62,395 nt of DNA from positions 1 through 62,395 of IMG/VR virus record IMGVR_UViG_3300036829_000406. One strand, written 5' to 3'. Each line of letters begins with the position of its first letter. The stretch's first letter is position 1. Of the stretch, positions 9,006 to 62,395 are shown in pieces. The DNA is from a virus. Lineage: Duplodnaviria; Caudoviricetes. A program made the translations under genes and the position numbers. The notes below the pieces were generated by a model that saw only the letters and a program-made list of their open reading frames with translations, did not search any database and was not told the origin of the DNA.

Positions 9006-9029
9006 CCCCAGCCAGCGATGAGGTGCGCG

Positions 9030-16196: not shown

Positions 16197-16427
16197 ATGA
16201 CCGACCCGGCCCCCGGGATGACCGACGTAGGCCCTGAAGCGCTCGACCTGCTGACGATGGCCGAGGTGGCTGAGCGGCTGAGGACGTCGGAGAAGACGGT
16301 GCAGCGCATGATCCGGCAGGGTGTGTTCACGAAGCTGAAGATGGGCAGCCTGGTCCGCATCGATCCGGCGGAGGTCGCGGCTTATAAGAGGCAGCTGCAC
16401 GAGCAGGCGGCCGCTGCGGCCCGGTGA
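16197..16427 (+). CDS. xis: excisionase-like HTH_17 protein
   Basis: 'LLTMAEVAERLRTSEKTVQRMIRQG....KMG.LVRI' divergent from int. Confidence 0.8.
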   Translation: MTDPAPGMTDVGPEALDLLTMAEVAERLRTSEKTVQRMIRQGVFTKLKMGSLVRIDPAEVAAYKRQLHEQAAAAAR

Positions 16428-33402: not shown

Positions 33403-34283
33403 AGGTACGCCTCGGACATGAACGGGATGCCGCCCTGGCTGCCGTTGAGCAGCTCGGCGGCCATGTTCGGGACCGCGAACCCGAACCCTGGCACGGTCAC
33501 CATCTCGCCGCCGCCCATCGGCAGCGCAGCCGGGCCGCGCTGGCTCGTCCACAGGTGCTGGAGGACGATCCGGGCGAAGCTGTTGAACGCGGCCGGGACC
33601 GCGGTGCCCCATCCGGCGACGTAGGTGACGTTGACCTGTGGCAGCCAGGAGAAAAACGGCCCGTAGAACGGCAGGCCCAGCTGGCGCCGGATCAGCCCGG
33701 CGTTGACGTCGAGGTCGAGGCCGGCGGAGATGTCGATGGCGCCGCCGGACGCGGAGATGATCGAGGTGACGGAGACCAGGGGCCGCTGCCGGACCGGGAT
33801 GACCGTCTGGTCTGCCATCATCTCGGATCGTTCGGTGACGGACCGGTTGACGAGGGGGCCGCCGGTGGCGCGTTCGAGGTTGCTCTCGATCGTCGCGATG
33901 TAGCTTTGTATCTCTGTGTCGAAGGTGGTTGTGGCCTGCAGGATGTTCAGGGTGTCCTTGGCGTCCTGGAGTGGCAGCACGGACGTCTCGAACGGGTCGA
34001 AGACGTCGAATTCGCCGAAGGAGACCCCGGCGCCGGTGCCGGTCGCTGTCCACGCGTACTGGTAGTGGCCGGTGGTGGCCAGGTCGGTGATGGGGATGTC
34101 CTGGTGGTAATTGCCTGTCGAGTCGAGCGTGGGGGTGGCGTAGGTGCCGGTGGTCAGCTGGGTGCCGTCGGCCTGGGCCAGTTTGGCGGTCAGGGTGAGC
34201 GTCCCGGCGTTGACCGGTGTGCCAGCGGTGTCCCGGACGGCGGTCGACAGGCGGATGGGCTGCCCGAGCGGGTAGCGGCTCAA
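33399..34283 (-). CDS. head-to-tail adaptor with N-terminal Ig-like domain
   Basis: 'LQDAKDTLN....FDTEIQSYI....ERATG...VTYVAGW...VP...ARIVLQHLW'. Confidence 0.75.
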   Translation of the reverse strand: MSRYPLGQPIRLSTAVRDTAGTPVNAGTLTLTAKLAQADGTQLTTGTYATPTLDSTGNYHQDIPITDLATTGHYQYAWTATGTGAGVSFGEFDVFDPFETSVLPLQDAKDTLNILQATTTFDTEIQSYIATIESNLERATGGPLVNRSVTERSEMMADQTVIPVRQRPLVSVTSIISASGGAIDISAGLDLDVNAGLIRRQLGLPFYGPFFSWLPQVNVTYVAGWGTAVPAAFNSFARIVLQHLWTSQRGPAALPMGGGEMVTVPGFGFAVPNMAAELLNGSQGGIPFMSEAYL

Positions 34284-37200: not shown

Positions 37201-38272
37201 CGGATACCGCGATGCCGCCGATCACCACGATGAACGAGCCGGTCATCGTGACGGTGAACGTGGCGCCTTCGCTGCCGTCGCTGACCCGCCACAGGAGCTG
37301 CTGGGCGATATTCGACCCGTTCGCCACTGTGGCGGCGGTGAACCCGGTGCAGGCGAACGTGTCGGTGGCGTTGACCGAGCCGGACCACAGCAGGATCAGC
37401 AGCCCCGCGGGGGTGCCTGACCCGTTCCAGCCGGGATTGTTTACCGCCTGGCTGGACACGTTGGCGGCGCCGGAGCCGGCGCTGCTGGTCCCGGTGACCG
37501 CCAGGGCAGATACCGGGGCTGCGGCCAGCGACCCGGCCCCGGTCAGGGTGGCGCCGGGCGGCCCGCCGCCGGCTGCGATGGCCGATCCGGTGCCGGTCAG
37601 GGTGGCGCCGCCGGAGACGGCGCTCCCGGCCGCCTTGTAGCTGGCGATCGAGCAGTCGGCGTTGGTGGAACTGGCCGGCGTCCAGGTGACCGAGTACAGC
37701 GACGCCGACCCCACGCCGATCTGGTATGCGCCGTCCACGCCGTTGACGGAGAACGCGTGGTCGTGCCAGGTGCCGCCGGAATCGGGGTCGGATGTGGCCA
37801 GGGTGAAGGTGCCGGCGTTGGCCGAGCAGGCCACCGCCGAGACCACCAGGTCCCCGGCCGAGCTGGTCGCTGTGGTCGCGGCGGTGATCGCACCGGAAGA
37901 CGCGTTGTGTGTGCTGGCGGACTGGTCAAGTACGGGGGCGCCGGAGACTATCTGGAGCCCGGAGTATTCCGCGACCCCGATCTCGCGGTTCGAGGATGCC
38001 GACATGGTGACACTGATGGTGTCGCCGGACAGCAGCGCCGTGGCCAGGTATGCGGAGCAGATATGAGCGGCGGAGTTGGACGATCCGCTGATGACATCCA
38101 GGTTCCAGGTGTTGCCCCGGCTGTCGCTGATCGCGGTGGGGTGCACGCCGCCCGCGCACCGGATGTACATGACCAGGACGTTGCCCTGGGTGGTGTTCAC
38201 GCCCAGGGTGACGGTCGGGTTGCCGGTCGCCGACGGCACGGTGCCGGCGATCTGGACGAAGGCGACCGCCAC
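34280..38272 (-). CDS. large structural-region protein with internal PhoD-like metallophosphoesterase and G/A/T-rich repeats
   Basis: 'VSC', 'FTGDFDY', 'SDHE', 'MIDIR', 'TMLGATQLAWL', 'KWWSY..ERQ', 'HGDSH' at about 35580-36830; 'LTGAGSL'-type repeats. Confidence 0.8.
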   Translation of the reverse strand: MAVAFVQIAGTVPSATGNPTVTLGVNTTQGNVLVMYIRCAGGVHPTAISDSRGNTWNLDVISGSSNSAAHICSAYLATALLSGDTISVTMSASSNREIGVAEYSGLQIVSGAPVLDQSASTHNASSGAITAATTATSSAGDLVVSAVACSANAGTFTLATSDPDSGGTWHDHAFSVNGVDGAYQIGVGSASLYSVTWTPASSTNADCSIASYKAAGSAVSGGATLTGTGSAIAAGGGPPGATLTGAGSLAAAPVSALAVTGTSSAGSGAANVSSQAVNNPGWNGSGTPAGLLILLWSGSVNATDTFACTGFTAATVANGSNIAQQLLWRVSDGSEGATFTVTMTGSFIVVIGGIAVSGADTSSPFDPSLSGSGTCLGSVGTTLTAPGITTGQNGDLLIWLATGRLGAGAAVPAITPPSGFTTALAQADSGGGAGHANVDVYAATMTQTTAGATGALSGTLAASADGGALLISVAAPGGPVPGTVSQLVAGAPAAAGFQVYAKTSGATSCRLAYSTSPSMTSPSYITAQTPDASGYLRYTLTGLSAFTRYYVQVADTPSGGMESLIGPIGACKTLATAGTPANYTVALVSCIAQGDTVTPPATAAAISDWISYGADLNVFTGDFDYSGTTSTVLATQVGVYETQIGFIPSLSSMVATAWGYYCRSDHEAGPDNGDSDNTYTATNIAAAQSVFPMGVLGDTVNSPPHGLYQAWVSGRVRFIMIDIRNTDRSPGGNTDNGTKTMLGATQLAWLENQLIQPEPLKVIISDVAWMGTATITNGPDKWWSYDTERQAIISYIAANRHLVKNVVLWHGDSHLVGCTVGANNSWGGFPVYCAAPLLNVGGGLMQTTFDQHYSNSGGECRQYGRLAFTDNGSSITVAFQGWDAVAGIAQVSQTDVFPTPSADLAGAGSLAAGGGIAGAAGLTGAGSVSAPPAVQRAGTALDAAGSVAAPSAQRAGTALTGAGSIPAGPAQQTAVMLAAAGSLGTAPGLQPAAVTLTAAGTLAAGAVQQAGAAPRGAGSVNAPASAVQAGKTLGGAASLAAGAALAAGAITVAGRASLSAGPAGQAGATLAGAGSLSSTEVQGGGAALDGTGNLTVPVTLRAGAPLTATGTLTGGAAQGAAVTLTGTGSVATGVTQQAGAVLGAAASITGGTVQGSSLPGAAHLTAGAGVTAPATMAGTGSVTAGAAGQAATTLAAAGQLTTTPGQRATTSLTAAGAITGSGGGVTPASAPLTAAGSLPATAAAVTSGTTTLTASAALTTAARTSAAAALTALGTLTAPTAARAPAVLAGTGTLTAAAGQLLAFTVGTLTGSTAAQATLTAADQRTGGPD

Positions 38273-48935: not shown

Positions 48936-49442
48936 TCAGACCTGCCAGACGCCCGGCGTGGCCAGCTCCTCCCAGCGGACGAACGCCCAGCAAGCCAGCG
49001 TCGCACCCACCAGCGGCCCCTGATCCACCGCCACCTTCGGATCCCACGCCTTCGCACCCGCCAGCGGCCGCTGATGCGCCGCCCGCACCGCGGCGGTAAG
49101 CGGCGGCTGATCGAGATGCTCCAGACCTTCATTGCTGACCAGATCCAGGAACTCCCCATGCGCGACAGCGACATCCTGCGCCGACACTTCCAGCACCAGA
49201 ACCCCCGCCTCACCCAGGGGCTTCACCAGCGTCCCCGACTGGCTCTTAGGGTTCACCACGACCGCCACCGGATCATGCTTCTCCCACAAGACAGCCATCC
49301 GGGCCACGAGCAGCCGCGGGTGATCATAGAACGGCGCCAGGTCCACCAGAATCTTCCCCGACCCGCTGCGGCCAGCCGCCACAATCGACCCATGCTTACG
49401 GTCCTCACTGATCGCGCACCCGAACGCGACAGGATCACTCAC
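48936..49442 (-). CDS. terL: terminase large subunit, nuclease domain (separate ORF)
   Basis: 'VAFG...DR..GSI.AAG...L.H.DQPPL..AV.....R....AW......D..PLVG.TLA.W'. Confidence 0.75.
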   Translation of the reverse strand: MSDPVAFGCAISEDRKHGSIVAAGRSGSGKILVDLAPFYDHPRLLVARMAVLWEKHDPVAVVVNPKSQSGTLVKPLGEAGVLVLEVSAQDVAVAHGEFLDLVSNEGLEHLDQPPLTAAVRAAHQRPLAGAKAWDPKVAVDQGPLVGATLACWAFVRWEELATPGVWQV

Positions 49443-50386
49443 AGCAGCCCCCGCGGGACAGCAGCCGCACCCCAGGTGTCCTCACCGATGACACCCCAGC
49501 CAGGCTTAGCGACCTCCGGCCACTGGCACAGATAGGCCCGCCGGAACTCAGGCAGGTCCATCAGCCCGAAATCCGTCTTCACCGTCTCCTCGGACACCGT
49601 GATCCCCAGCGCAGGCATCCGCCGCCGCCACGTCACCGGATCCCCCGGATCCTCATCATCAGCCGCCGAATAGCCGATATAACAGCCGCCCTCCGTCACG
49701 CCCATCTCCGCGCGGGCCCGCCCGTCCTCAACCTTGGCGCGGAAATAAGCCGACCTCTCCGTCCCAGCCGCCGACACAATCCACAGCTGCGCGTCGCGGG
49801 TCATCATCGCCGGGCGCATCGCCTGCTCAAGATGATCATCCTCCTGCGCCCACGCCTCATCGATCACGCCCAGGTCCAGGTTGTCACCATGGCCGCTCGT
49901 CTGCGTCCCGGACACCAGACCCAGCATCGACCCGTTACGGAACAGGTACGCCTCCGACCCTGAACCCCTGCGCACATCGATGAACCGGCGCAGCTTCGAC
50001 CGCTCGATCATCGGCCACCACACATCCAGCAGCCGGTGCCGCGCATCCAGCCGCGTCTGCGCCGTGTAGGAGATCTGCGTCCCCGGCCGCCGCAGCCCGC
50101 GGGCGATCATCATCGCCAGCAGATCAACCGTCTTACCCTGCTGCCGCATCACCTCGACCACCACCTGCCGGTACGCGAACCGGCCCTCCGGCGTCAGCTC
50201 CGTCGCCACCGCGTTCACGTCCTCGTGCTGCCACGGCATCAAACCTGGCCCCAGCACCGTACGGAAACCGAGCAGCTCGGCGGTCTTGCTGATCCCGCCC
50301 GCCAGGTTCGGGCGGCCAGGCGTCGCCGGTGTGGCGAACCTAGGCTTGCAGAGCGCCGAAGAGCCCGGTGAGGTCGGCGTCGGCAT
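49439..50386 (-). CDS. terL: terminase large subunit, ATPase domain
   Basis: 'LMPWQ', Walker A 'RQQGKT', Walker B 'VIDEA', 'SAAG', 'FRRAYLCQW'. Confidence 0.88.
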   Translation of the reverse strand: MPTPTSPGSSALCKPRFATPATPGRPNLAGGISKTAELLGFRTVLGPGLMPWQHEDVNAVATELTPEGRFAYRQVVVEVMRQQGKTVDLLAMMIARGLRRPGTQISYTAQTRLDARHRLLDVWWPMIERSKLRRFIDVRRGSGSEAYLFRNGSMLGLVSGTQTSGHGDNLDLGVIDEAWAQEDDHLEQAMRPAMMTRDAQLWIVSAAGTERSAYFRAKVEDGRARAEMGVTEGGCYIGYSAADDEDPGDPVTWRRRMPALGITVSEETVKTDFGLMDLPEFRRAYLCQWPEVAKPGWGVIGEDTWGAAAVPRGLL

Positions 50387-52616: not shown

Positions 52617-52826
52617 TCAGGAATCCTCCACGTGGAGGCTGCCGGAGACGTGGGAACCGCCGAAGCTGGACGCCGCCGTCCCGTACTTCGGGTCAGCCAG
52701 GACCGCCTTGAGCGCCTCGTACAGCTCCACCTCAACCGCCATCGCGCTGGGCGCGGGTGCCGCGTCGGGAGAATCGGACTGAGCCGGTACGGGGACGTGA
52801 CCGGCGGCGTTCAGGCTCCAGGACAT
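52617..52826 (-). CDS. hypothetical protein, first gene after the late leader
   Basis: GGAGG RBS. Confidence 0.65.
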   Translation of the reverse strand: MSWSLNAAGHVPVPAQSDSPDAAPAPSAMAVEVELYEALKAVLADPKYGTAASSFGGSHVSGSLHVEDS

Positions 52827-52839
52827 GGGTCCTCCGTAT

Positions 52840-53014
52840 CGCAGGCGTCAGGCCCGGCACGGGGGGGGTGTACCGGGCCTGCTGTGCGCCGGGTGGAATC
52901 CGCACCAGCAAAGCTTGGGGAGGGGTGCGGGTCCTGACGCGGTGGAGCTGCCCAGTTGGGGGTCTGGGCATGGGGTGCCAGGGCCAGTTAACTTCACGGA
53001 ACGGAACTTTGCAA
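52840..53014 (-). promoter_or_regulatory. putative late promoter and structured 5' leader
   Basis: TTGCAA 53014-53009, 17 bp spacer, TTAACT (weak -10); several nested inverted repeats in the following 150 nt. Confidence 0.45.
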
Positions 53015-53035
53015 GGAGGCACCCGGAGCTGGACG

Positions 53036-53272
53036 TCATGTCTCTCCTGATGGCAGGGTGAGCCATGGTGCGAGGGCGGCGTGCAGGCGCTGCAGCTGCC
53101 CGATGTCGTAGAGGAGCTGGCCGCGTCCGCCGCGCTGCCCTGATGCTGTCTCGCCGACGGCCTTGAGCCGCACGGCGCGGATGGCTATGCGGAACTGGGC
53201 CGGGTCGACGGGCAGCCCGGCGCGCTCGAACTCGGCGCAGGCCTCGCTGAGGGTCCAGCCGTGGACGGTCAC
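53036..53272 (-). CDS. MerR-like winged-HTH DNA-binding protein (possible late regulator)
   Basis: 'WTLSEA...G......FR......L...G......GR...LYD...L..LH'. Confidence 0.55.
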   Translation of the reverse strand: MTVHGWTLSEACAEFERAGLPVDPAQFRIAIRAVRLKAVGETASGQRGGRGQLLYDIGQLQRLHAALAPWLTLPSGET

Positions 53273-53409
53273 GGCGTCCAGTCCGGCACGTCGAACATGC
53301 CCTGGTCGCGCATGACCCAGATCGCCTCGTTCACCTCGTCCTCGTCGAGGCCCTGGTCGCGCAGCTGGTCGCGGACTTCGGCTTCAAGGATCTCGTCGCG
53401 TTCAGCCAC
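53269..53409 (-). CDS. small acidic protein
   Basis: GTG start, GTGA overlap. Confidence 0.45.
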   Translation of the reverse strand: MAERDEILEAEVRDQLRDQGLDEDEVNEAIWVMRDQGMFDVPDWTP

Positions 53410-53507
53410 GCCCGTCGGCTTTCGTGGGTGGGTCGCCGCACGGGTCACCACGGCGGGCGCGTGGCCCGGGAACCCAGCTGCTGTCCGCGAACTCGAGCCA
53501 CATCGCG

Positions 53508-53711
53508 TCAGCGAAGCCGAGGAACGACGCGGTAGCCGCCGCGGGACAGGCAAGGCTCATTCTTGCGGTGCGTGGCAGTGCGGGTGTGCGGTGCGAGGGC
53601 GACGAACCGGCGGTCGGCGTGGGCGGCCTCGATACCGACGGCACGCCCGGAGATGGTCCGGCCGCATTCCGGGCAGACACCCCTGGCTCGCGGCGCGCCC
53701 CGATTGGCCAT
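53508..53711 (-). CDS. small Zn-ribbon protein
   Basis: CPECGR...H...C. Confidence 0.5.
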   Translation of the reverse strand: MANRGAPRARGVCPECGRTISGRAVGIEAAHADRRFVALAPHTRTATHRKNEPCLSRGGYRVVPRLR

Positions 53712-53718
53712 CGCGGCA

Positions 53719-53868
53719 TCATCCGAACGCCATCGGGTGCGCTTCGGCGACGTGCTTCCACCAGTTCCGGAAAGCGTCCACCACGGCGTCACCGAAGCAG
53801 CGGACGCCGCATTCGCAGGTCCACACGGGAGCCGCGTCGCCGAAATCGGCCGTCACCGTAACTGCCAT
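53719..53868 (-). CDS. small Zn-finger protein (49 aa; not in ORF track)
   Basis: MAVTVTADFGDAAPVWTCECG...WKHVAEAH; GGAG RBS. Confidence 0.5.
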   Translation of the reverse strand: MAVTVTADFGDAAPVWTCECGVRCFGDAVVDAFRNWWKHVAEAHPMAFG

Positions 53869-53872
53869 GGGA

Positions 53873-54526
53873 TCACGTCTCCACGTCCGCTGCGGTCTCT
53901 ACCAGGCCGTCCGACCAGGCGAGCGCCGGCCGGCCATGAACATCAGTGCCAGCAGCCGCCACCGGCCGCACACCGTTCCTGTCAGCACAGCCGACAGCGA
54001 AACACTCAACATGCCCCGTCGGCCGGCCCGCCGCGTCAAGCAGCACCTTCAGGGTCACCAGGCACCCGCAGTACGGGCACGCCCGGCCGCGCACATGCCG
54101 CCACTGCTGCGCCTCATCGATCGCCGGGTCCGCCCGGGCGGCGTTCACCCACCGGTCCAGGATGCGGATCGCGGCGGCCTCAGCGTCCCGGCCCAGCCCG
54201 GCGGCCAGCCGCGGGATGGCATCCAGCGCCGCCGACGTGTTCCCCGGCGAGCCGCCGCGGCGTGCACCCGGATGGCCGGTGACCGCGTACCGGAGGGCGG
54301 CTTCGAGGCGGCGTGCACCCTCATGGCCGTCCAGGAGGGCCCGGCCGGCGGGGGCGTTCCACGGTTCGGGTGTCTCGGCGGCGCGGGGGGCCATGCCGGG
54401 TGAGCCGCCTGGCGCCGACGTGGGCTCGGCGACAAGACGTTCCAGGACGTCCATGTACCCGGCGAGCATGGTGCAGGCTTCACGCACAAGATCGACCGGG
54501 CCAGCCAAGGGAGCACCTGCCTGCAT
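53873..54526 (-). CDS. hypothetical Zn-binding protein (CPYCG...C...C)
   Basis: resembles actinophage genes found before late operons. Confidence 0.65.
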   Translation of the reverse strand: MQAGAPLAGPVDLVREACTMLAGYMDVLERLVAEPTSAPGGSPGMAPRAAETPEPWNAPAGRALLDGHEGARRLEAALRYAVTGHPGARRGGSPGNTSAALDAIPRLAAGLGRDAEAAAIRILDRWVNAARADPAIDEAQQWRHVRGRACPYCGCLVTLKVLLDAAGRPTGHVECFAVGCADRNGVRPVAAAGTDVHGRPALAWSDGLVETAADVET

Positions 54527-54553
54527 CAGGAGTTACCGGGAGCTAACCGGAGT

Positions 54554-54781
54554 CTAAGGTATTGGCGCAGGTGAGGCGATTGTCTTCCCCGGTGTTTTCC
54601 CGGCGGTGCCGATGCCGAACTCGGCGAGCATCAGCGCGCCGAGCCGGACGAGCCGCGGGCCGTTCTCGTGCGTGATCAGCGGAGCATGGCCGCGCAGAGC
54701 CAGCGCCTGTGCCGCGTCGGCGACCAGCGCCGCCGCGTCGGCCTCGCGGACCATGCGTCCTCCTCGCGGGGACAAGGCCAT
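54554..54781 (-). CDS. hypothetical protein
   Basis: GAGGAGG RBS before an internal ATG. Confidence 0.55.
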   Translation of the reverse strand: MALSPRGGRMVREADAAALVADAAQALALRGHAPLITHENGPRLVRLGALMLAEFGIGTAGKTPGKTIASPAPIP

Positions 54782-54999: not shown

Positions 55000-55309
55000 G
55001 AGCGGCCTCATCGCCGTCGGGGTCGCGAAGATGACCGGTGTCCAGGTCATCGTCCCCGTGTTCGCGGATGTAGGCGTCGTCGTCCAGCCGCTCGGCCAGG
55101 TCGGCGAGCTCTTTCAGCAGCCATCCGGCCAGCCGGTCACGGTCGCTGCTGCTGGCGCGCAGCGCGGGTCCCAGCGCGCGGGCGCGGGTGATCATGTCGC
55201 GGTCGTCATCGGTGAGACCGGCGCGCGGAGCCGGAGGGCCGGCGCCGAGTTCATTGATCGCTTCTGACACCTTCCTGGCGCGCTCGGCCCACTCGTGGAT
55301 GCCGCTCAT
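54992..55309 (-). CDS. hypothetical protein
   Basis: AAGGAG RBS, ATGA overlap. Confidence 0.65.
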   Translation of the reverse strand: MSGIHEWAERARKVSEAINELGAGPPAPRAGLTDDDRDMITRARALGPALRASSSDRDRLAGWLLKELADLAERLDDDAYIREHGDDDLDTGHLRDPDGDEAAHG

Positions 55310-56322
55310 GGTGTGCTCCTTGCGAGGTCGTTCCGGGCGCGCTGGACCGTCTTGGCGGACACGGCCGCCTGGACGGCTACCTTGTCGTTGTCCCAGCCCG
55401 GGTTGGCCCGGATGATGGCCGCGGCCTTGTCCCGGCCGGTGCGGGGCGCCGCGGTCTTGCGGGGTGCTGGTTTGTCCGCTGTCCTGTCCTCGCGTGGCGG
55501 GACAGAACCGCTGGCCGGCGGCGTGTCCTGGCGTGTGTCCTGAGCCTTGGTGTCCGGCGCCCTGTCCATGGTCCTGTCCTGTCCGCTGACAGGCGCGGGC
55601 AGCAGGGCGATGGCGGCCTTCGGCCTGTTCTCACCATCCCAGGTCGCCAGCCGCATGACCCGGTACGACAGGACCGGATGCCACGTCCACCGGGTCATGC
55701 CAAGCCGGACAGCGTGCGCCTCGATCTGATTGTCCGCCTTCAGCGCGTCCCGGGACACCCGCCGGGAATGCACCGACCACAGCCACGGCGACGACACCGA
55801 CATCAGCCCGAACGTGACCGCCGCGAACGTCGGCCGCCAGCCAGCCGCCATGTAGTGGCTGTAGTTCATGGTGCCGATCACCGCGGCGAACGCGTACGCG
55901 GCCAGCCGCAGCCGCAGCGCCGAGTCGTCGGCGGCCAGCGCCAGGTGGGCCTGCCACGCCAGGTAGACCGCGACAGATTCCAGGGTGACGGCAACGAGGA
56001 CCTGCCCGGCCAGGATCCATGGCAGGTGGCCGCGGAGGAACGCGAGCTGGCCGGCGAACGCGACAGCGTTGACCAGGACGATGGGGATGGCGGCCAGCCA
56101 GCCGCGGTGCGCGGACATGGCATGCCACCAGCGGCTGGCCTTGTCCGGGATCGTCCGCAGCTGTCCAGGATCGTCCCGCTGCGGCTGACTCGCCGGCGTC
56201 AGGGCCGCAGGTGGCCAGTGGGCAAGCCCAGACGCTGCCCTGAAATCATGCAGAGGGACAGACACCGGCCCGCTATGGCCGTTCGCCTGCGGTGCCGCTG
56301 GTGTCGTCAGCATGCCGTTCAT
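55306..56322 (-). CDS. multi-pass membrane protein with C-terminal HTH (DUF2637/Spd-like plasmid transfer protein)
   Basis: four TM helices ('VAVTLES..VYL', 'GTMNYSH'), linker, then 'NDKVAVQAAVSAKTVQRAR' HTH; architecture of actinomycete plasmid/AICE spread proteins. Confidence 0.65.
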   Translation of the reverse strand: MNGMLTTPAAPQANGHSGPVSVPLHDFRAASGLAHWPPAALTPASQPQRDDPGQLRTIPDKASRWWHAMSAHRGWLAAIPIVLVNAVAFAGQLAFLRGHLPWILAGQVLVAVTLESVAVYLAWQAHLALAADDSALRLRLAAYAFAAVIGTMNYSHYMAAGWRPTFAAVTFGLMSVSSPWLWSVHSRRVSRDALKADNQIEAHAVRLGMTRWTWHPVLSYRVMRLATWDGENRPKAAIALLPAPVSGQDRTMDRAPDTKAQDTRQDTPPASGSVPPREDRTADKPAPRKTAAPRTGRDKAAAIIRANPGWDNDKVAVQAAVSAKTVQRARNDLARSTP

Positions 56323-56918
56323 CGTGCCCTCGCTTCCTCGGTCAGGAAATCGCCGCCGTACGGCAGCTCGCCGCCCTCGCGGACGTACAGGTAAGGCGTC
56401 TCATAGGTGCTGTCCAGGTCGACGGGAACCCGCCGCAGGCAGTCGAGCGCGTGGGCGAGCCGCTGGCCTGCGCCGTCGATGATCTCCAGGGCGGCGTCGC
56501 AGTCGGCGATGACGGCGCTGGCCGCGCCCAGGGCGTTCTCGGCTGCGGCTCTGGCCTGCGGGTTCGCGGCGGAAGCCATCGCCGCCCGCGCGTCGGCCGC
56601 GGCGGCGCACGCAGCGGCCCGGTCGGCACGCCAGGCCGCGGCCATACCACTGGCGCAGCGGAGCATGCTGACCAGGTAACCCTCGATCTCCTCCGCGGCC
56701 TCGACCAGGACCTGATCGGATCCGCACGGCCGGTCTGAGGTCCACAGCAGCGCGCCCGCTTCCCCTGCCGTCAGGGCCAGGGCGGCGCCGATGAGGCCGC
56801 CGGTCGCCTGCGGGTTCACCCCGGCCGCCCAGGCGCTGCCGTTGAGGCGGGCGCAGGCGAATCCGGGTTCGCGGATGTCCTCGGCGAACGTCAGCGCCAG
56901 GCCTGTCCGGGTGCTCAC
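56319..56918 (-). CDS. hypothetical protein
   Basis: helical Ala-rich ORF coupled to the Spd-like gene. Confidence 0.6.
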   Translation of the reverse strand: MSTRTGLALTFAEDIREPGFACARLNGSAWAAGVNPQATGGLIGAALALTAGEAGALLWTSDRPCGSDQVLVEAAEEIEGYLVSMLRCASGMAAAWRADRAAACAAAADARAAMASAANPQARAAAENALGAASAVIADCDAALEIIDGAGQRLAHALDCLRRVPVDLDSTYETPYLYVREGGELPYGGDFLTEEARAR

Positions 56919-56946
56919 GGACCCCTCTTTTCGCTACAGGGAGTGA

Positions 56947-57037
56947 CGCTCAAAGCGGCTGATTTTTGAGCGGGACGAGGGCTGCCGCTCAAAGAAAACC
57001 CCTCCCCTATGCAGGGCTGGACGCTCAAACACTCAAA
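56947..57037. repeat. clt-like 8-bp repeats CGCTCAAA
   Basis: direct copies at 56947, 56986, 57022, variant CACTCAAA at 57030, inverted copy at 56965; non-coding, immediately downstream of the traB-like gene. Confidence 0.65.
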
Positions 57038-57072
57038 GATTGGGTGAGGATGGCTGTGGGACGAACGCGCGA

Positions 57073-59223
57073 TCACGGTGTGTCACCGCCGGGTGGTTCG
57101 GTGAGCAGCCAGCGGGCCGTCCGCTTCTCCCCCGCCATCCGCACCAATCCCTCGGTCCGCAGACGCTCGAGGTAGGTGCGGGCTGTCCATTTGGTCACCT
57201 CGAGCACGCGGGCGACCTCGCTGATGGTGGTCCCGGCGGACAGCAGCCCGAGCAGCTTCCCGCGGGCCTCGTCCGGGATCTCGGTGGCCTCGCCGACCTG
57301 GCGCCACCGCTCGGCGGCGTGGGCCAGCTGGGCCTCGTGCGGGATGTCGGGCACGGGCTCGGCGGAGGCCTCGGCGAGCAGCCGGCGGGTTGCGGCGTTG
57401 CGTCTCCCCTGCTCGACCCAGCGGCGGCGCAGCGGATCGCTCTCGTCCAGGGTGCTCAAGTGGTCCTCCGCTTCGCGGTCGTAGGCGTCGAGGCTGGCCC
57501 GCTCCTCGATCTTCAGGGCGTTGGCCAGCGTCTCGGCGGTCTCGCCATCCGCTTCCACGGTGCCGTCGCGGACGGCTAGGGCGAGGGCATGGAGCGGGTT
57601 GTGCGGATCCGCGCCACGGGGAGCAGACGGGGACACCGGTTCCGGTTCCGGCCCGGCACCGATCTTCCGCCGGCCGTGCGCCCACCGGGTGAACGGCTCG
57701 TCGCTCAGAAGCCGCGCATAGGAATCACCCAGGAAACTCTCAAGTTCAGGTTCAAGGTTAGGCTGGTCCATGGCCCGTTCCTCGGCCATCCTCCGCAGGT
57801 CACCTGGCTCTTTCAGCAGGAATGTGCGGCCCGTCCGGACGCTCCCGCCGAGCTCGGCGATTGCCCAGACGCCCTTATGGCCGTCGCCGTAGCTGGCCAT
57901 GTCGGGCATCTCCAGGCCCAGATCCCCGGCGGCGTGCATCATCTCGCCGCGGCGGGACACCGCGCCGATACAGAACACGTCGACCAGGGCGCGGACATCG
58001 CCGCCGCCGATCCACTCGGCGGTGCCACGCTGCCCGGCGATCACCGGGGCGACCGCTTCGGAACCGCCCTTGCTGTAGATGGTCTTCAGTGCCTCACGGG
58101 CCGCGGGGATGGAGGCCAGGGCGTCGATCTCGTCGCCGATGAACAGGATCAGGGGATGCCCGGCCGACGGCTGGAACACCGCGGTGTCCCGGGGCTGCTG
58201 GGAACGCCATTCGATGGTCCGCTCCAGCATCCGCAGGATCTTCACGGCCCGGGTCGCCTGCTGGCGGGTGATCGCGGTCAGGTGGCAGGCGACATCCCAT
58301 TGCCTGTCCTCGATGCCCTTGGACAGGTTGAGGTTGACGACCAGCACGTCCGGTGCTTTCGTGGCGCGCTCGCGCAGGTTGTTGATCAGGACGGTTTTGC
58401 CTGCCCGGCTGGTCGCCACGATGAGGATCCGCTTGGCGCCGTCCTGATCCCATACGGTCAGGGTGAGCGGGGTGCCGGTCTCAGGGTCCTGGCCGATGAT
58501 GAACGGCTCCCGGCAGGTGCACAGGCCGGACAGGTCGATCTCCGGGTCCGGGTCAAGCGCCGGGTGGATGATCGGCTTGGCCCATGGGTCGGTGCGGCGG
58601 ATGGAGATCTCCACGCGGCCAGCGAGCCTGTGCCGTTTCACCTGCACCCGCGACACAGGCAGGCCTTCGTCCTCGGCGATCCGCTCGGCGACGTCGCCGC
58701 CGGCGATCTGGGAGGCCCGCTTCCCGGTGCCCTTGACGTCGATGATCTTCCGCTCGCCCAGCCGGGTCACCTCGTGGTGCAGCAGGTGGGAGCCTTTCAG
58801 ACCGTACCGGTGGGCGGTGGCCAGCCAGTCTTCCGACGCGAGCCGCTTGCCTCTGGCCTCCAGGACAGCCGGGTGGCTGCGGGCCCACCGCCAGCCTGTG
58901 AACGTCAGGGCCGCCCATGCCCCGGTGAGCGGGAAGTACCAGCCAGGGCCGGCGAGCGGGCCGAAGCGGGCGGCCAGCGCCGACCAGGCTCCCGCGGCCA
59001 GCAGCCAGCCGGCGCCCCCGCGGGCGCCCTTGCCGTAGACGGCACCCGCGGCGGCGAGCGTCCCGAGGCCGATGTCGAGCCAGGGGATGCCGGTGGCGTG
59101 CATGATCTCGGCGGCCGTCCAGACGCCCGCACCGGCCAGCGGCACCGCGCGGGCCGCTTTCTCGGCAGGCTTGCGCCGCAGCTGCGGCGGGGCAGCTGCC
59201 GGGGCGTCCTGGACTTCGGTCAC
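57073..59223 (-). CDS. traB: TraB-like FtsK/SpoIIIE DNA translocase
   Basis: N-terminal TM helices, Walker A 'ATSRAGKT', Walker B 'LFIGDE', 'AGQR', C-terminal wHTH 'TISEVARVLEVTKWTARTYL'. Confidence 0.8.
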   Translation of the reverse strand: MTEVQDAPAAAPPQLRRKPAEKAARAVPLAGAGVWTAAEIMHATGIPWLDIGLGTLAAAGAVYGKGARGGAGWLLAAGAWSALAARFGPLAGPGWYFPLTGAWAALTFTGWRWARSHPAVLEARGKRLASEDWLATAHRYGLKGSHLLHHEVTRLGERKIIDVKGTGKRASQIAGGDVAERIAEDEGLPVSRVQVKRHRLAGRVEISIRRTDPWAKPIIHPALDPDPEIDLSGLCTCREPFIIGQDPETGTPLTLTVWDQDGAKRILIVATSRAGKTVLINNLRERATKAPDVLVVNLNLSKGIEDRQWDVACHLTAITRQQATRAVKILRMLERTIEWRSQQPRDTAVFQPSAGHPLILFIGDEIDALASIPAAREALKTIYSKGGSEAVAPVIAGQRGTAEWIGGGDVRALVDVFCIGAVSRRGEMMHAAGDLGLEMPDMASYGDGHKGVWAIAELGGSVRTGRTFLLKEPGDLRRMAEERAMDQPNLEPELESFLGDSYARLLSDEPFTRWAHGRRKIGAGPEPEPVSPSAPRGADPHNPLHALALAVRDGTVEADGETAETLANALKIEERASLDAYDREAEDHLSTLDESDPLRRRWVEQGRRNAATRRLLAEASAEPVPDIPHEAQLAHAAERWRQVGEATEIPDEARGKLLGLLSAGTTISEVARVLEVTKWTARTYLERLRTEGLVRMAGEKRTARWLLTEPPGGDTP

Positions 59224-59244
59224 CGGGATCAGTCCTCTCGCTAA

Positions 59245-60075
59245 CTACAGGTCGCCAGTGAGAAACTCGCGGGCCTTGTGCGGCAGCGGGCCGTGAGCGG
59301 ACACCCATTCCTTGACCGCCCCGTAGATCACGCCGAACCGCTTGTGGATCTGCGCCAGCAGCGACCCGTGGCCGCCCGCGCTGTCCCCGGCCTCGAGGAT
59401 CCCAGCGACGTACGCGGGGTCCAGGCCGACGCTGTTCAGGCAGGTGTCGGCGAACGCGTGCCAGGCATCGGCGATCAGGACCGACCCGGCGGCGTTGCCT
59501 TCCATGAACATCCGCAGCGCCATGTCGTCCTCGGGTTCGAACCCCGCGATGAACTGGGCCAGCGACGCATACGGGGCCGGGGCGACACCATGCCCGGCGA
59601 GCAGCTCGGCGGGCTCGGGCATCGGGCCGAGGGCTGCGTCTTCCAGGATCGAGGGGATGGACCGCCGGGTTATGGCGTCGGCGACGACCGCGGGGGCACT
59701 GCCCTGGGCCGGGATCGATCCGCCGTCCCGCCGGCGGCGCACCCAGTGCATCAGCTCGCGGGCGTCTTCGGCTGGTGCGGTAAGGGCCTCCCGCAAAGCG
59801 GCCGCTAGATCGCGGAGCCCGTTTACGGTCCACGCTCGCGCCGTGAGGGCGGCAGCGCAGAAGGCGATGCCAGCGACGACTGCCCCCGCATCTGGGCCTG
59901 CCGCTCCGGCCAGGGTCAGGGCGGCCATCGTCACGGTGACCTGGAGGGCCAGTACGGTCCAGTTGGCGAGCACGGCCACAGCGTCTTTCCCGACGCTCAG
60001 CATGCGGAATGTGCGCCAGCCGGTGACGGCAGCGAAAAGGATGGCCACCAGCCAGCCGATAGCGGTAAGGATCAT
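59245..60075 (-). CDS. membrane protein, TraA-like position
   Basis: three N-terminal TM helices; AAGGAAGG RBS; immediately upstream of traB. Confidence 0.6.
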   Translation of the reverse strand: MILTAIGWLVAILFAAVTGWRTFRMLSVGKDAVAVLANWTVLALQVTVTMAALTLAGAAGPDAGAVVAGIAFCAAALTARAWTVNGLRDLAAALREALTAPAEDARELMHWVRRRRDGGSIPAQGSAPAVVADAITRRSIPSILEDAALGPMPEPAELLAGHGVAPAPYASLAQFIAGFEPEDDMALRMFMEGNAAGSVLIADAWHAFADTCLNSVGLDPAYVAGILEAGDSAGGHGSLLAQIHKRFGVIYGAVKEWVSAHGPLPHKAREFLTGDL

Positions 60076-60088
60076 GAAGATGCCTTCC

Positions 60089-60694
60089 TTAGCAGGTCGC
60101 GGTCAGGGTGCCGCCGTAGCGGCTGGCCGCCCACGGGCTGGCCATGATGGCGTTGCATACCGCCTGTGCGCTGGCGCCCCGGCGAAGTGCAGCGAGGATG
60201 CCGCTGTAGTAGCCGTTGTTCAGCGTGGCGACCGTGTACCGGAGGCCCGTCTGGGCGTCAGGAAATGCCCACGCGCCTATGACATTGCGTCCGGGCCAAT
60301 CTGCGCCAGCGCCCGGATTGACATTCAGCGGGTTATAGGCGGCCTGGTTGCCGAACCCGCCGCCTTCCCTGGCTTCCCATTCGCGGATCGCGGACAGGTT
60401 GCAGGCGGTACGGGGCAGGCTGTCCGCGGCGAGCAGTGCGGCGGCCCAGCCGGACGGGGTGTTCAGGCTGCTGCCGGACGGGATGGCCGCCTGGGCTTCG
60501 GTCGCGTGCCCGGAGCTGCTGCCGTGGTGCGCGGCGGCTGCCCTGCTGCCGTGGTGCGCGGCGGCTGCCCTGGTGCCGGTCGCGGCGGCCAGCACGACGG
60601 CCACGGTCACGGCGATGACCGGGCCCGCGCTGCCGCTCTTGCCGTAGCTGCGGTAGCGGTACTTGCGCGGCAGGCGGTAGGTGAAGGCGGCCAT
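60089..60694 (-). CDS. membrane-anchored lysozyme-like/transglycosylase protein
   Basis: TM then 'WEAREGG......YNPLN......F.....GL..TV.TL.NG.Y..I..AL......SPWA...Y'. Confidence 0.6.
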   Translation of the reverse strand: MAAFTYRLPRKYRYRSYGKSGSAGPVIAVTVAVVLAAATGTRAAAAHHGSRAAAAHHGSSSGHATEAQAAIPSGSSLNTPSGWAAALLAADSLPRTACNLSAIREWEAREGGGFGNQAAYNPLNVNPGAGADWPGRNVIGAWAFPDAQTGLRYTVATLNNGYYSGILAALRRGASAQAVCNAIMASPWAASRYGGTLTATC

Positions 60695-60966
60695 CAGCGG
60701 CGCCTCCGGCACTGGCGCGCGTTACGACCAGGCAGGACGCGGGAGCGCATGTTGGTGGACGAAGAAGCGCTGCCGAGCGAGATCCAGCCGCCACAGTTTC
60801 GGCACTCGCCTTCGTAAGTGCCGCTGTTAATCTTCCTGAGCCTCACCGAATGCCCCGTATCACGAAGCTTTCCGGCCCATTCGTTCTTGGATGCGGCCAG
60901 CCAGCCGGCCGGGGTATCGGAGTACTCGCGACCGTCGTAGGAAGACCTGAACTTGCGGCGGGCCAT
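60694..60966 (-). CDS. hypothetical Zn-ribbon protein
   Basis: TGATG overlaps; CRNC. Confidence 0.6.
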   Translation of the reverse strand: MARRKFRSSYDGREYSDTPAGWLAASKNEWAGKLRDTGHSVRLRKINSGTYEGECRNCGGWISLGSASSSTNMRSRVLPGRNARQCRRRR

Positions 60967-61664
60967 CAGAGAATCCTCAGCAGCTTCAGCAGCCCACGGA
61001 GGAGCGCGATCCCGACGACGATGACGACCAGCCAGCCAGCCCAGTCGGAGGGCAGGTGGGTCGGCATCCTGGCGCTATCGGACGCCGGGCTGGCCTGGGC
61101 GTGGGCGGGAGCTGCGGTGTCCTGTGACGGGCCGGCAGTCGGCGGCCCCGAGATCGACGGGACCGGCGCAGGATGCACCGCGCAGGATGCGGGCTGGCCA
61201 GCGTGCGGGCCGACGTTCACAACCAGCGGGGTTTCCGCCGCCGCGCTGAACTGGGCGATTCCGCCCGCGGCCGCCGACTTGGCCCCGGGGCCGGTCTCGG
61301 CGATCAGGTTCGCGACGTACCGGCCCGGCCTGGTGCCGGCCGGGATCGCGACCGACAGCGGCACGCTCGCCGTCTTCCCTGCGTCCACGGGAACGGAGTT
61401 CCGCTGGAAGAACCACAGGTCACGGGGGTAGCTGACGTGGACCCAGGATGCGGGGAGCGCACGGCCGGCCTGCCCGGCCGGCGCCCCGGCGGCAACCGAG
61501 ATTGCCTCCTGGGAGTCGCCGGTGTTCGCGACCGTGACCGTTCCCAGGCTCCAGGTGTGGCCCGGGGACAGGGTGACGTCCATGCACACGGGGCTGGCGG
61601 AGATGCCGACGCCGATGCTGGCGGGCAGCAGCAGGCCGAGGGCCAGGGCCGTCGCGGTGATCAT
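60966..61664 (-). CDS. secreted, C-terminally anchored Ig-like protein
   Basis: signal peptide, 'VTVANTGD...V.LSVAIP.GT.PG.Y', Pro linker, C-terminal TM. Confidence 0.65.
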   Translation of the reverse strand: MITATALALGLLLPASIGVGISASPVCMDVTLSPGHTWSLGTVTVANTGDSQEAISVAAGAPAGQAGRALPASWVHVSYPRDLWFFQRNSVPVDAGKTASVPLSVAIPAGTRPGRYVANLIAETGPGAKSAAAGGIAQFSAAAETPLVVNVGPHAGQPASCAVHPAPVPSISGPPTAGPSQDTAAPAHAQASPASDSARMPTHLPSDWAGWLVVIVVGIALLRGLLKLLRIL

Positions 61665-61671
61665 CGGTGGC

Positions 61672-61917
61672 TTACCTGCGCTTCGCGGTGCCGTAGGTGT
61701 AGCCCGGGGTGCGCGTGGCGGTCTTCTTCTTGGGCTTGATGACGGCCAGCACCACGCAGGCGATGACGAAGGCGCCCGCGGCGGTGCCGATCAGCATCGC
61801 GTGCTGCGTGCCGGGCGTGGCGGTGTGGTAGGCCTTCAGGGTCGTCACCCAGCCGACGGCGCCGATAGCGGCGAGGATCAGGATGCCGTTGATGACGGCG
61901 CGGAAGAACGTGCGCAT
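61672..61917 (-). CDS. small two-TM membrane protein
   Basis: two hydrophobic helices, basic tail. Confidence 0.65.
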   Translation of the reverse strand: MRTFFRAVINGILILAAIGAVGWVTTLKAYHTATPGTQHAMLIGTAAGAFVIACVVLAVIKPKKKTATRTPGYTYGTAKRR

Positions 61918-62237
61918 TACGCTGCCTGCTCTCGTGGTTGCGGGATTGACGCTGGGATGTTCCGGCGGTAGAGCCGGCGGCGTTCCCGTTCGGACATGCC
62001 GCCCCAGATGCCGAACCGCTCCTCATGCTCGAGCGCGTACTCCAGGCACTGCGCGCGCACGTCGCAGGCCGCGCAGACCCGTTTGGCTTCGCGGGTCGAG
62101 CCGCCCTTTTCCGGGAAGAAAACCTCCGGATCTGTCTGCGCGCACAGGGCCAGGTCGGTCCAGTCGGGAGGAGTCAGGCCGATGGGGTCCGGCTCGGCGT
62201 GCTCGCCGTACATGCGGGAGATGCTGTAAGGGTTCAC
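61917..62237 (-). CDS. whiB: WhiB-family transcription factor
   Basis: 'W...ALCAQTDPEVFFPEKGGSTREAKRVC..C.VR..CLEYAL...ERFGIWGG.SERERR'. Confidence 0.95.
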   Translation of the reverse strand: MNPYSISRMYGEHAEPDPIGLTPPDWTDLALCAQTDPEVFFPEKGGSTREAKRVCAACDVRAQCLEYALEHEERFGIWGGMSERERRRLYRRNIPASIPQPREQAA

Positions 62238-62395
62238 CGGGCCACCTCCTGCGCCTGGTCCTGGTCCTGCGGGACGTCGAACCGCGGCTGCGGCCCGGGC
62301 GCGAAGTACGACGCCAGGATGGCGTCCGCTTCGCCGCTGTCGATCTCGCCGCGGAACACGGCGAGCACGTCGGCCGCGGTCGCGGGGCCGCTCAT
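62234..62395 (-). CDS. small hypothetical protein (53 aa)
   Basis: ATG at the window end, GTGA overlap with whiB. Confidence 0.55.
   Translation of the reverse strand: MSGPATAADVLAVFRGEIDSGEADAILASYFAPGPQPRFDVPQDQDQAQEVAR

Follow-up and report, generated by a model that had tools for sequence, protein, structure and literature searches.

Conjugation in mycelial actinomycetes needs little beyond one DNA pump and a docking site. In the described plasmid systems, the pump TraB binds 8-bp clt repeats via a winged helix-turn-helix (wHTH) domain, and Spd membrane proteins assist (PMC4447253, PMC3583192). AICEs, the integrative and conjugative elements of actinomycetes, are described as 9–24-kb elements containing an integrase with adjacent attP, Rep, Tra, and a GntR or XRE regulator, often with Xis and Nudix, and lacking virion genes (PMC2440964, PMC3218068), and the Pfam model PF01580 is used for finding their Tra genes (PMC3218068). 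A conjugal transfer locus was also described together with virion genes: papers that cite the plasmid-phage pZL12 ascribe to it replication, transfer, and phage cycles, and phiNon1 of Nonomuraea (59,257 bp, 70.0% GC, integrated and circular) was likened to pZL12 (PMC5431353). For actinophages, SpdB2 homologues were proposed to aid the spread of phage DNA (PMC4447253), and FtsK-like, WhiB-like, and Lsr2-like genes are reported in Streptomyces phages (bioRxiv 10.1101/2024.02.16.580700). The present work concerns IMG/VR record IMGVR_UViG_3300036829_000406, of which positions 1–62,395 were analyzed as one stretch, hereafter called the window. It encodes a tailed temperate phage, and the gene block at its right-hand end (55306–62395) includes a 716-aa ATPase that is followed by a cluster of 8-bp repeats.

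We lean towards the view that this right-hand 7 kb may be a double-stranded DNA (dsDNA) translocation module of the kind carried by actinomycete plasmids and AICEs, which covers both inter-mycelial transfer and intramycelial spreading; the sequence cannot tell conjugation between mycelia from spreading within one mycelium. All genes from 62395 down to 55306 lie on the minus strand, and this layout of open reading frames (ORFs) confirmed the co-oriented block pointed out in a preliminary description of the DNA. The block is composed as follows, where labels such as L012 and G014 denote the loci and records used for comparison.

62395, minus strand: a 53-aa ORF (ORF call), the first of the block, at the window end
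61917–62237, minus strand: WhiB-family regulator (Pfam Whib, E 3.8e-27; WhiB families of PHROGs)
61672–61917, minus strand: 81-aa protein with two hydrophobic segments (hydropathy)
60966–61664, minus strand: 232-aa protein with N- and C-terminal hydrophobic segments (hydropathy), having a homologue in L012
60694–60966, minus strand: 90-aa Cys-containing protein (ORF), with homologues at the same position in L019, L016, L017, and L004
60089–60712, minus strand: 207-aa conserved protein with one N-terminal hydrophobic segment (hydropathy)
59245–60075, minus strand: 276-aa protein with three N-terminal hydrophobic segments (hydropathy), the conserved upstream partner of the ATPase
57073–59223, minus strand: 716-aa FtsK-fold protein (AlphaFold2, Foldseek, profile)
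56919–57072, no strand: 154-bp spacer with the 8-mer cluster, a candidate clt-like docking site (repeat counts)
56319–56918, minus strand: 199-aa protein, the conserved downstream partner of the ATPase (homologues)
55306–56322, minus strand: 338-aa protein with four uncharged hydrophobic stretches (hydropathy)

The locus shares several properties with TraB/clt/Spd of the plasmids pSVH1, pIJ101, and pWTY27 and with the AICE Tra of pSAM2. These are an N-terminal membrane part, an FtsK-type motor, and a wHTH in the protein, and, as far as these systems are described in PMC4447253, PMC3583192, and PMC2440964, clustered short repeats that lie at the gene's 3′ end or just behind it, with small membrane proteins alongside. 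As with AICE Tra, the protein family occurs in small integrated islands with an integrase and GntR, and with an excisionase and Nudix in one island each. In contrast to TraB and AICE Tra, the window protein escapes PF01580, is accompanied by two conserved partner genes outside the known families, and resides in a phage; its family is ~700 aa in length, whereas the PF01580 proteins of the same genomes are ~450–560 aa. The C-terminal domain of FtsK/SpoIIIE recognizes 8-bp words (KOPS/SRS). With these chromosomal proteins the window protein shares the motor fold, Walker A and B, the QR motif, and a C-terminal DNA-reading domain, but the sequences are very distant (10.7–11.9 bits), the window C-terminus is not FtsK_gamma, and the repeats are clustered in one place.

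The AlphaFold2 model of the 716-aa protein (mean pLDDT 84) consists of four N-terminal helices (residues 19–115), an alpha/beta P-loop motor (~235–500), and a C-terminal wHTH with a wing (~650–707). The motor contains Walker A (G275/K276), Walker B (D364/E365), and Q398/R399, of which G275, K276, E365, Q398, and R399 are invariant and D364 nearly so among 30 homologues. Foldseek against the Protein Data Bank (PDB) gave FtsK motors as the top matches (E 1.4e-10 to 7.6e-10, ~410–430 aligned columns, target-normalised TM-score 0.58–0.68), followed by the conjugation coupling protein TcpA and then EccC. A profile hidden Markov model (HMM) constructed from 30 relatives, denoted A1, also matched FtsK in the PDB (E 1.5e-4) over the stretch from Walker B to QR, and phmmer with the single sequence against the PDB detected only wHTH noise. 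In Pfam, the protein showed a weak match to AAA_22 only, plus wHTH matches below the cut-off (HTH_29, 20 bits; FaeA, 19.9 bits). By its modeled fold and its motifs, the 716-aa protein is assigned to the FtsK/HerA superfamily of P-loop DNA translocases, and the model has the three-part architecture of the TraB type, namely an anchor, a translocase, and a C-terminal wHTH, with the anchor weakly hydrophobic. The FtsK motor and the wHTH anticipated in the preliminary description were thus found, the latter in the model and in Pfam matches below the cut-off, and its transmembrane anchor proved less pronounced than stated.

The family comprises at least 195 proteins, almost all unnamed (195 relatives among 8000 scored candidates in a search of 5.8 billion proteins). 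PF01580 was carried by none of the 120 listed homologues. A tblastn search of 50,697 deposited phage records with the 716-aa protein found no match at E 1e-3, and three weak matches of 24% identity were obtained in Streptomyces plasmids. Two relatives of ~1100 aa (P0102 and P0104) contain a LAGLIDADG_3 domain (PF14528), an intein-like insertion in the ATPase. For comparison with both branches of the FtsK/TraB group, four chromosomal FtsK and seven PF01580-positive TraB-like proteins (~450–540 aa) were collected from four Streptosporangiaceae genomes; five further fetched stretches were dropped from the TraB-like set, since the Walker A pattern picked no ORF in them. When A1 was aligned by hhalign, the TraB-like proteins gave a probability of 93.9 and E 1.5e-7 over 273 columns, and the chromosomal FtsK gave a probability of 62.6 and E 7e-5 over 129 columns. 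The same order was obtained in A1 HMM scores, which were 79.4 bits for a 797-aa protein of a Streptomyces phage-plasmid, 19.1–23.5 for the TraB-like proteins, and 10.7–11.9 for FtsK. The TraB-like set is itself nearer to FtsK (hhalign E 1.1e-13) than to the 716-aa family. Judged from these alignments, for which the preliminary description had asked, the family lies at the far edge of the FtsK/TraB group, and the transfer branch is somewhat closer to it than chromosomal FtsK is. Pump relatives at L007:9854-12469 and L020:5263-7656 end in an FtsK-gamma-like sequence (…FLQRKLR…), not in the window-type wHTH. Because the window protein ends in a wHTH and some relatives end gamma-like, the DNA-reading domain has been swapped within the wider family.

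The repeat CGCTCAAA occurs six times in the window against 0.97 expected, and none of 100 shuffles reached six. Four exact copies are located within 83 bp (56947–57029) of the spacer just 3′ of the ATPase gene, starting at 56947, 56986, and 57022 on the plus strand and at 56965 on the minus strand, and a one-mismatch copy abuts them at 57030–57037. Only two further copies are found elsewhere in the 62 kb. The 8-bp repeat cluster that had been noticed in this DNA was therefore reproduced by the counts. We extended the count to 19 repeat loci, which are the window, nine loci of genomes, and nine of viral contigs; L004 and L010 among them are near-duplicates from one metagenome-assembled genome (MAG). 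At least three copies of some 8-mer were present in the 200 nt behind the ATPase stop codon in 18 of the 19 loci, the exception being L008, and background windows of the same locus contained ~1.8 copies on average, with 0/430 to 24/432 of them reaching the observed count. This comparative clustering of 8-mers is the strongest single result of the sequence analysis. The word itself is specific to the locus, as exemplified by AATGTCCC, ATCGACCC, AACGTGCG, GGCCGGCCAA, and CGCTCAAG, and its position is fixed. The usual layout consists of direct copies, a central TATAG-like element, and inverted copies. Three loci (L002, L006, and L009) have both the motif AATGTCCC and the helix SRMGAWR in common, and the window and L013 share both KWTART and CGCTCAA(A/G) with proteins merely 41% identical overall. 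Such covariation of helix and 8-mer, uncorrected for kinship, is suggestive and does not amount to a code. In the spacer 56919–57072, a simple scan found no sigma-70-like promoter, and no terminator was found on the gene strand. The 154-bp spacer is proposed as a candidate clt-like docking site for the wHTH of the ATPase.

The two partner genes accompany the ATPase in most of these loci. A homologue of the 276-aa protein lies directly upstream in 8/9 genome and 7/9 viral loci, and that of the 199-aa protein directly downstream in five of nine loci of either kind. The 199-aa protein gave no family match in Pfam, PHROGs, NCBIfam, or PADLOC, and its best score in a protein atlas (0.78) was unusable. 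Homologues of the 207-aa protein occur upstream of the 276-aa homologue in seven loci, and in L004, L007, and L016 its position holds a domain like the transglycosylase domain of tape-measure proteins. The window protein had been called lysozyme-like, which was not confirmed: no match was obtained in Pfam, PHROGs, NCBIfam, or PADLOC, and its model (pLDDT 53.7) was too poor for a fold search. The annotation of whiB was borne out by the Pfam match given above; WhiB homologues are located upstream of the ATPase in seven of the nine viral loci and two of the nine genome loci, and the Planobispora locus L009 also has a Pfam Whib gene. Hydropathy likewise agreed with the membrane proteins and the three-segment protein described before, which correspond to the 81-aa (two segments), 232-aa (both ends), and 276-aa (three segments) products. 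The 81-aa protein has a 55% identical homologue at the same place in L012, and the 232-aa protein matched no family above the cut-off in Pfam, PHROGs, or NCBIfam.

The 338-aa protein at the end of the block had been described as a protein with four transmembrane segments and a helix-turn-helix (HTH); the four hydrophobic stretches are present, and no library found the HTH. Its Pfam match to DUF2637 reached 17.5 bits, below the 22.8 cut-off, and its BLASTP match to the DUF2637 protein of a Streptomyces phage-plasmid is weak (E 0.084). Homologues exist in the records G014 (45%) and G019 (74%), and at this position in 11 of 13 other loci there is a gene with at least one hydrophobic stretch (at least two in 10) that is not detectably similar. 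The 338-aa protein is thus only loosely tied to the module. Apart from WhiB, no protein of the block passed a curated cut-off in Pfam, PHROGs, or NCBIfam, and PADLOC on eight proteins found no defence family, its sole match being that of the wHTH to Csa3.

Family members were located in nine loci of GTDB genomes, which belong to Sphaerisporangium, Streptosporangium, Planomonospora, Planobispora, and MAGs. Two loci of isolates, L006 of Planomonospora and L009 of Planobispora, were annotated in full. The gene order of L006 is Nudix, GntR/UTRA, two SsgA, small proteins, the core module, an HTH_36 protein, a 69-aa ORF, and a tyrosine integrase; it is flanked on one side by a CRISPR array, and a tRNA-Arg is present ~1.6 kb beyond the integrase, past an LRV/HEAT-repeat gene. 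That of L009 is GntR/UTRA, WhiB, SsgA, the core module, an M48 peptidase, PycTM, HTH_36, an HTH_17 excisionase-type gene, and an integrase, and its integrase regions are duplicated 14.4 kb apart with 72–80% identity. In both, the core module is composed of the 276-aa homologue, the ATPase, and the 199-aa homologue plus the repeat cluster. The integrase and GntR are common to both, Nudix is found in L006 only, a Pfam-confirmed excisionase in L009 only, and the position of Rep is occupied by the HTH_36 protein only. Gauged against the published description (PMC2440964, PMC3218068), these are AICE-like islands of ~12–14 kb with no room for virion genes, and the family member is the only large ATPase of either island. 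No PF01580 match was listed at the places of the L006 and L009 homologues; since the model stays below its cut-off on their ATPase genes, AICE surveys based on PF01580 would miss such islands. The islands lie beside or between CRISPR arrays with a 61-nt period and the repeat GTCCTCCCCACGCCCGTGGGGGTGAGCCG (L006:1980-2863; L009:3004-3389 and 17140-17419). SsgA-family sporulation/cell-division genes are present beside the transfer module at L006:6424-7247 and L009:6753-7172, and the cargo of L009 includes the M48 peptidase and the PycTM protein, which is of the Pycsar effector type. The window phage itself is not an AICE as defined above: it has an integrase and an excisionase-type gene but a full set of virion genes, and GntR, Nudix, and Rep had no family match among the ~40 proteins, out of 90 candidate window genes, that were scanned with family libraries.

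Nine other IMG/VR contigs encode family members, and in five of them (L011, G003, G001, G004, and G005) a terminase is located downstream on the same strand. Two of these, G001 and G005, have direct terminal repeats and are ~125 kb in length. The terminase search found none in G002 and G006, and G007 and G008 were outside the search. The phage nature of the larger records rests on the terminase and the IMG/VR class, because capsid and portal families were not found in them. A distant homologue is also carried by a 99-kb circular Streptomyces atratus plasmid, which is a phage-plasmid with the gene order DUF2637, a 656-aa gene, the 797-aa FtsK-like protein, terminase, ParB, minor head, major capsid, and a peptidoglycan-recognition protein. 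The 797-aa protein is 24% identical to the window 716-aa protein, ends gamma-like, and is linked at 25–45% identity to plasmid genes annotated as FtsK/SpoIIIE. Five more Streptomyces plasmids (86–94 kb) encode a protein of this type at 66% identity or more. The resemblance of these 86–99-kb plasmids to the window lies in the FtsK-like protein that they share; on the 99-kb plasmid, the one annotated here, its gene adjoins DUF2637 and is located upstream of the terminase and capsid genes. The S. atratus plasmid, L007, and L016 encode ParB.

The place of the module in the phage was examined by a gene-by-gene comparison with three whole records, G014, G019, and G023, for which the following features of the window are relevant.

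1–62,395: record IMGVR_UViG_3300036829_000406, IMG/VR class provirus, CheckV completeness 89%
504–1079, minus strand: candidate immunity repressor of 191 aa, facing plus-strand early genes (sequence reading and position)
14528–15796, minus strand: tyrosine integrase (library match)
16182–16427, plus strand: HTH_17 excisionase-type gene (Pfam)
48936–49442, minus strand: nuclease part of the large terminase (PHROGs phrog_9), in a different frame from the ATPase part
49439–50386, minus strand: ATPase part of the large terminase (PHROGs phrog_9)

This comparison gave a shared backbone with one variable slot, which lies between the immunity region and the small genes preceding the terminase. The complete relative G023 has the circular order of repressor and g1 homologues, ~10 kb of unrelated genes, g80/g79/g77 homologues, terminase, head, tail, and integrase/excisionase. 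From this order, the two ends of the window are taken to be joined in the genome itself, the module occupying the slot. The candidate repressor had no Pfam or PHROGs match; its homologues are present in G023, G014, and G019, and in G023 it borders the slot, which has the homologues of g1 and g2 on one side. The supposition that the genome is circular with the module downstream of the repressor agrees with G023 in gene order, but plus-strand genes intervene there between repressor and pump, so that a single operon running from the repressor into the module is unsupported as a general rule. In G014 (terminase 87%), whiB, the ATPase (33% identical), the 199-aa homologue, the 338-aa homologue, and the terminase follow in the same order as in the window. 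The slot of G023 holds a 681-aa full FtsK (FtsK_alpha, FtsK_SpoIIIE with 210 bits, FtsK_gamma) and an SLT_3 lysozyme-like protein. This FtsK (52711-54756; L117:12711-14756) scores 775–784 bits against chromosomal FtsK of Streptosporangiaceae and looks like a recently captured host ftsK. The slot of G019 holds a 687-aa protein that is weakly FtsK-like (~19 bits against host FtsK, no Pfam match), an SLT_3 protein, and the 74% homologue of the 338-aa protein. Three further relatives have sub-threshold PF01580 matches in open frames of 662–702 aa. The versions of the slot seen in these sequences are thus an AICE type with its own candidate 8-mer docking site, an apparently captured host FtsK, and orphan FtsK-like types. 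A membrane DNA pump looks like a recurrent and interchangeable fitting of this phage group, and two of the three relatives compared have a lysozyme-like gene close to it. The term phage–AICE hybrid used in the preliminary description is borne out in that the junction of module and phage recurs; it is too narrow in that two relatives carry other FtsK-type proteins in the slot. We tentatively entertain the wider proposal that the slot beside immunity holds interchangeable pump cassettes, that virion-free passage might be a regular third route for these phages, and that AICEs and phages might trade the cassette or have inherited it together.

As for the mechanism, the pump, probably a hexamer, would use its winged helix to dock on the phage's own DNA circle at the repeat cluster. 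It would be kept at a septum or hyphal contact by its N-terminal helices and by the membrane and wall-associated proteins encoded nearby, and ATP hydrolysis would there drive the phage genome into the adjoining hyphal compartment or into a mycelium in contact. In this way a prophage or episome would spread without virions, as TraB/clt/Spd do for pSVH1.

Several observations weigh against such a translocation module. PF01580 did not match the 716-aa protein at E 0.01, and the homologue of L002 reached only 21.6 bits, where the gathering cut-off is 24 bits; the protein has no match to an NCBIfam or PHROGs model either. Its N-terminal helices are Ala/Gly/Trp-rich and weakly hydrophobic, with no segment over the Kyte–Doolittle threshold. 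The correspondence of helix and repeat fails in two comparisons: one motif goes with two different helices in L011 and L018, and in the window and L011 the helices are nearly the same but the motifs differ. The repeats could be operators, as they lie on both sides of a conserved TATAG-like element in the sequence just upstream of the next gene. The 338-aa membrane protein also occurs without the ATPase family, in G019. Among close terminase relatives, the family is found in only one of 16 records (G014) and in none of the seven with terminal repeats. In the larger viral records tested, phrog_10 and PF05065 (capsid/portal) were each found in 0/5, and over all nine viral records the window portal matched 0/5 and then 1/4, weakly (E 4.6e-4, with internal stop codons). 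The host-type FtsK in the slot of G023 fits chromosome-like segregation as well as transfer. The explanation that the ATPase is missing in 12 loci (with at least 8.4 kb of sequence upstream of the terminase) as an effect of flank length was tried and rejected, since a whole-record search gave its absence in 15 of 16. The earlier assignment to a TraB/clt module is kept in kind, as the islands, the profile, and the repeats point to DNA transfer of the AICE/plasmid type, and given up in name, as the protein, lacking PF01580, is no canonical TraB. As to the co-occurrence of capsid and TraB that was to be sought in viral databases, a terminase was found with the module in five of nine contigs and in G014, and no capsid or portal family was found in five larger records.

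The competing explanation that survives best, although we do not think it likely, is segregation. In this case the pump would act in cis within the lysogen, at cross-walls or sporulation septa, and read its own 8-mers as FtsK reads KOPS; the episome or replicating phage DNA would be secured in every compartment or spore, and no DNA would leave the mycelium. The full FtsK in the same slot of G023, nearly identical to that of the host, would be readily explained in this way, and the weakly FtsK-like protein of G019, the sub-threshold PF01580 frames of three further relatives, and the SsgA sporulation-division genes that accompany the module in both islands point in the same direction, as does the report of FtsK-like genes in lytic Streptomyces phages (bioRxiv 10.1101/2024.02.16.580700). 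On the other side, the second home of the family is in AICE-like islands, whose known lifestyle is transfer, and the A1 profile is less distant from TraB-like proteins than from chromosomal FtsK. As in clt, the repeats are packed into a single cluster, with two further copies in 62 kb, and show no polar genome-wide spread, and a phage that has an integrase needs no partition device as a lysogen.

Distinctly unlikely, in our view, is that the repeats are operators, to which the ATPase binds through its wHTH or some other protein binds, or that the ATPase blocks or expels the DNA of a rival phage or plasmid. The arrangement of direct and inverted copies around the TATAG-like element, 60–150 bp upstream of the next start in most loci, would suit operators; the slot adjoins the immunity region, where phages often keep accessory genes expressed in the lysogen, and the presence of the family in few close relatives is usual for accessory genes. 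Direct and inverted repeats are likewise held by plasmid clt regions as these are described (PMC3583192), the promoter scan of the spacer found no site, and PADLOC gave no defence family in the eight proteins beyond the match to Csa3. Moreover, the FtsK motor fold, with alpha-plus-beta coverage of ~410–430 columns, argues for a DNA pump and not a plain regulator.

The assembly was assessed with Logan contigs. Those of three soil runs are ~1 kb (up to 1.3 kb) and none bridges a join; the listed joints have sides of 20–27 letters and look like GC-rich noise. Contigs of a second study include near-identical pieces of the head region and of the module, not linking the two. No RNA data set is listed among the sequencing runs with this DNA, which bears in neither direction on expression. 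That the module is a passenger, an AICE fragment beside or inside the prophage without benefit to the phage, or a chimeric assembly, would accord with these short contigs, with a module at the very end of a record that is a trimmed provirus, and with the absence of the family from most close relatives, but it is highly improbable, because the order of module and terminase recurs in the close relative G014 and five other viral contigs, the tested module-adjacent genes have no integrase, replication initiator, Nudix, or GntR match in Pfam, PHROGs, or NCBIfam, the GC content is even across the join (0.69–0.72), the flanking genes (g80 and lower; g1, g2) are common to relatives with other slot cargo, and, as a weak indication, word depth in the likely source run's contigs is similar for the phage part (10.5–14.8) and the module part (11.2–11.9).

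The record had been taken for a complete phage, which was not upheld by its 89% completeness and by a trimming of ~2.9 kb. The first letters of the window are a stop codon in reverse complement, the last belong to the ATG of a minus-strand ORF, and the 716-aa protein is recorded on a 65,291-bp contig, from which ~2.9 kb was trimmed; these ends and the parent contig indicate that the record was cut at gene borders. The window ends adjoin in the gene order of G023. The ~2.9 kb lost in the provirus trimming were probably phage or cargo genes and not DNA of the host. The exact 42-base pattern of the window end matched no metagenome contig. The GC content is 0.67–0.75 over the full length. The integrase and excisionase-type genes lie in mid-window with phage genes on both sides and no tRNA gene was found in the window; therefore, the window is not cut at the att site of that integrase. 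No att-like pair was found among the direct repeats of 16 nt or more in the whole window, and attL/attR were not placed. A tandem pair of elements (1–16 kb and 16–62 kb), suggested by the mid-window integrase, was rejected, as the order of genes around the circle is the same in the complete relative G023.

The backbone is that of a tailed temperate phage, with terminase, portal, major head protein, head-tail adaptor, a tape measure with a transglycosylase domain, lysin, and integrase, and a repressor assigned from position and sequence reading. Further phage genes encode a PDDEXK-like protein, RecT, a D12 methylase, and an Rv2525c-like glycoside hydrolase. Megablast of 55306–62395 against deposited phages gave no match, and for the head region a distant blastn search returned nothing beyond short portal matches (67–73%) to Gordonia, Microbacterium, and Mycobacterium phages. 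The two halves of the terminase overlap by 4 nt (GTGA) in the window. For the ATPase half, 77 close relatives (61–88% identity) were found in viral contigs (L038–L114), of which 72 have the halves in different frames, some with 180–700 nt between them, and a Logan contig from the likely source run shows the same junction. The terminase in two frames is thus probably characteristic of the lineage, as a gene that is split or recoded in a conserved manner, and damage is unlikely; a frameshift making the prophage defective was rejected on the same two grounds. Parts of the head, tail, lysis, integrase/excisionase, and origin modules named in the preliminary description are therefore present, with the word intact weaker for the head, since the terminase is in two frames, probably not through damage.

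Three repeat regions were observed elsewhere in the window. Approximately 25 tandem copies of a 12-nt unit (GGGACGCAGCCA and variants) are present at 7464–7765 inside the ORF 7063–7803, and would encode a protein of four-residue repeats, which has no family match. Three copies of a palindrome-containing unit CAGCCGGTACCACAGTACCGGCTG are located at 8461–8564, in a ~1-kb stretch (7997–9030) without a called gene, and are probably the repeats previously described as an origin. Between the head and tail genes, positions 34280–38272 encode a 1330-aa protein with many degenerate 54-nt-phased repeats, which matches the PHROGs hydrolase phrog_13624.

The nearest published types of element are the plasmid-phages. 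Like pZL12/phiZL12 and pSLE1 as these are described, the window phage combines virion genes with a transfer-type locus, the core of which also consists of three genes, and it is similar to phiNon1 in size, GC content, and host family as given for that element (PMC5431353). It differs from the pZL12 type by its integrase and excisionase, and no ParA/ParB was found among the scanned proteins, which do not cover all 90 candidate genes. From the FtsK-like and SpdB2-like genes of actinophages it differs in that the window protein is another family, which gave no tblastn match in the 50,697 phage records; the available text of those reports gives no docking site, partner genes, or AICE link. In the literature searched, neither the 716-aa family nor its 8-mer clusters were found described, nor was an integrating phage equipped with an AICE-type Tra and a docking site; a Streptococcus 'conjugative prophage' is reportedly listed. 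The finding is less new than first assumed, as plasmid-phages of the pZL12 type with a tra locus are already in print according to the papers that cite them.

For a pump family of at least 195 members and ~700 aa, almost all labelled hypothetical, 18 of 19 loci now have a predicted docking site assigned to the protein, and studies of binding specificity can draw on a pump and its 8-mer from each locus. As the family is missed by the Pfam model of AICE surveys, the counts of AICEs in Streptosporangiaceae are probably too low, and, if the proposed role is true, a whole class of AICEs may have been overlooked by PF01580-based surveys. Papers on actinophages list FtsK-like genes and, in the text available, leave their use to phages open; the slot that is filled with host-type FtsK or other FtsK-like proteins in relatives constitutes a natural experiment on the role of such pumps. 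If the translocation module acts as proposed, a temperate phage would spread both as a virus and silently from hypha to hypha, and models of prophage spread, host range, and gene flow among soil actinomycetes would change.

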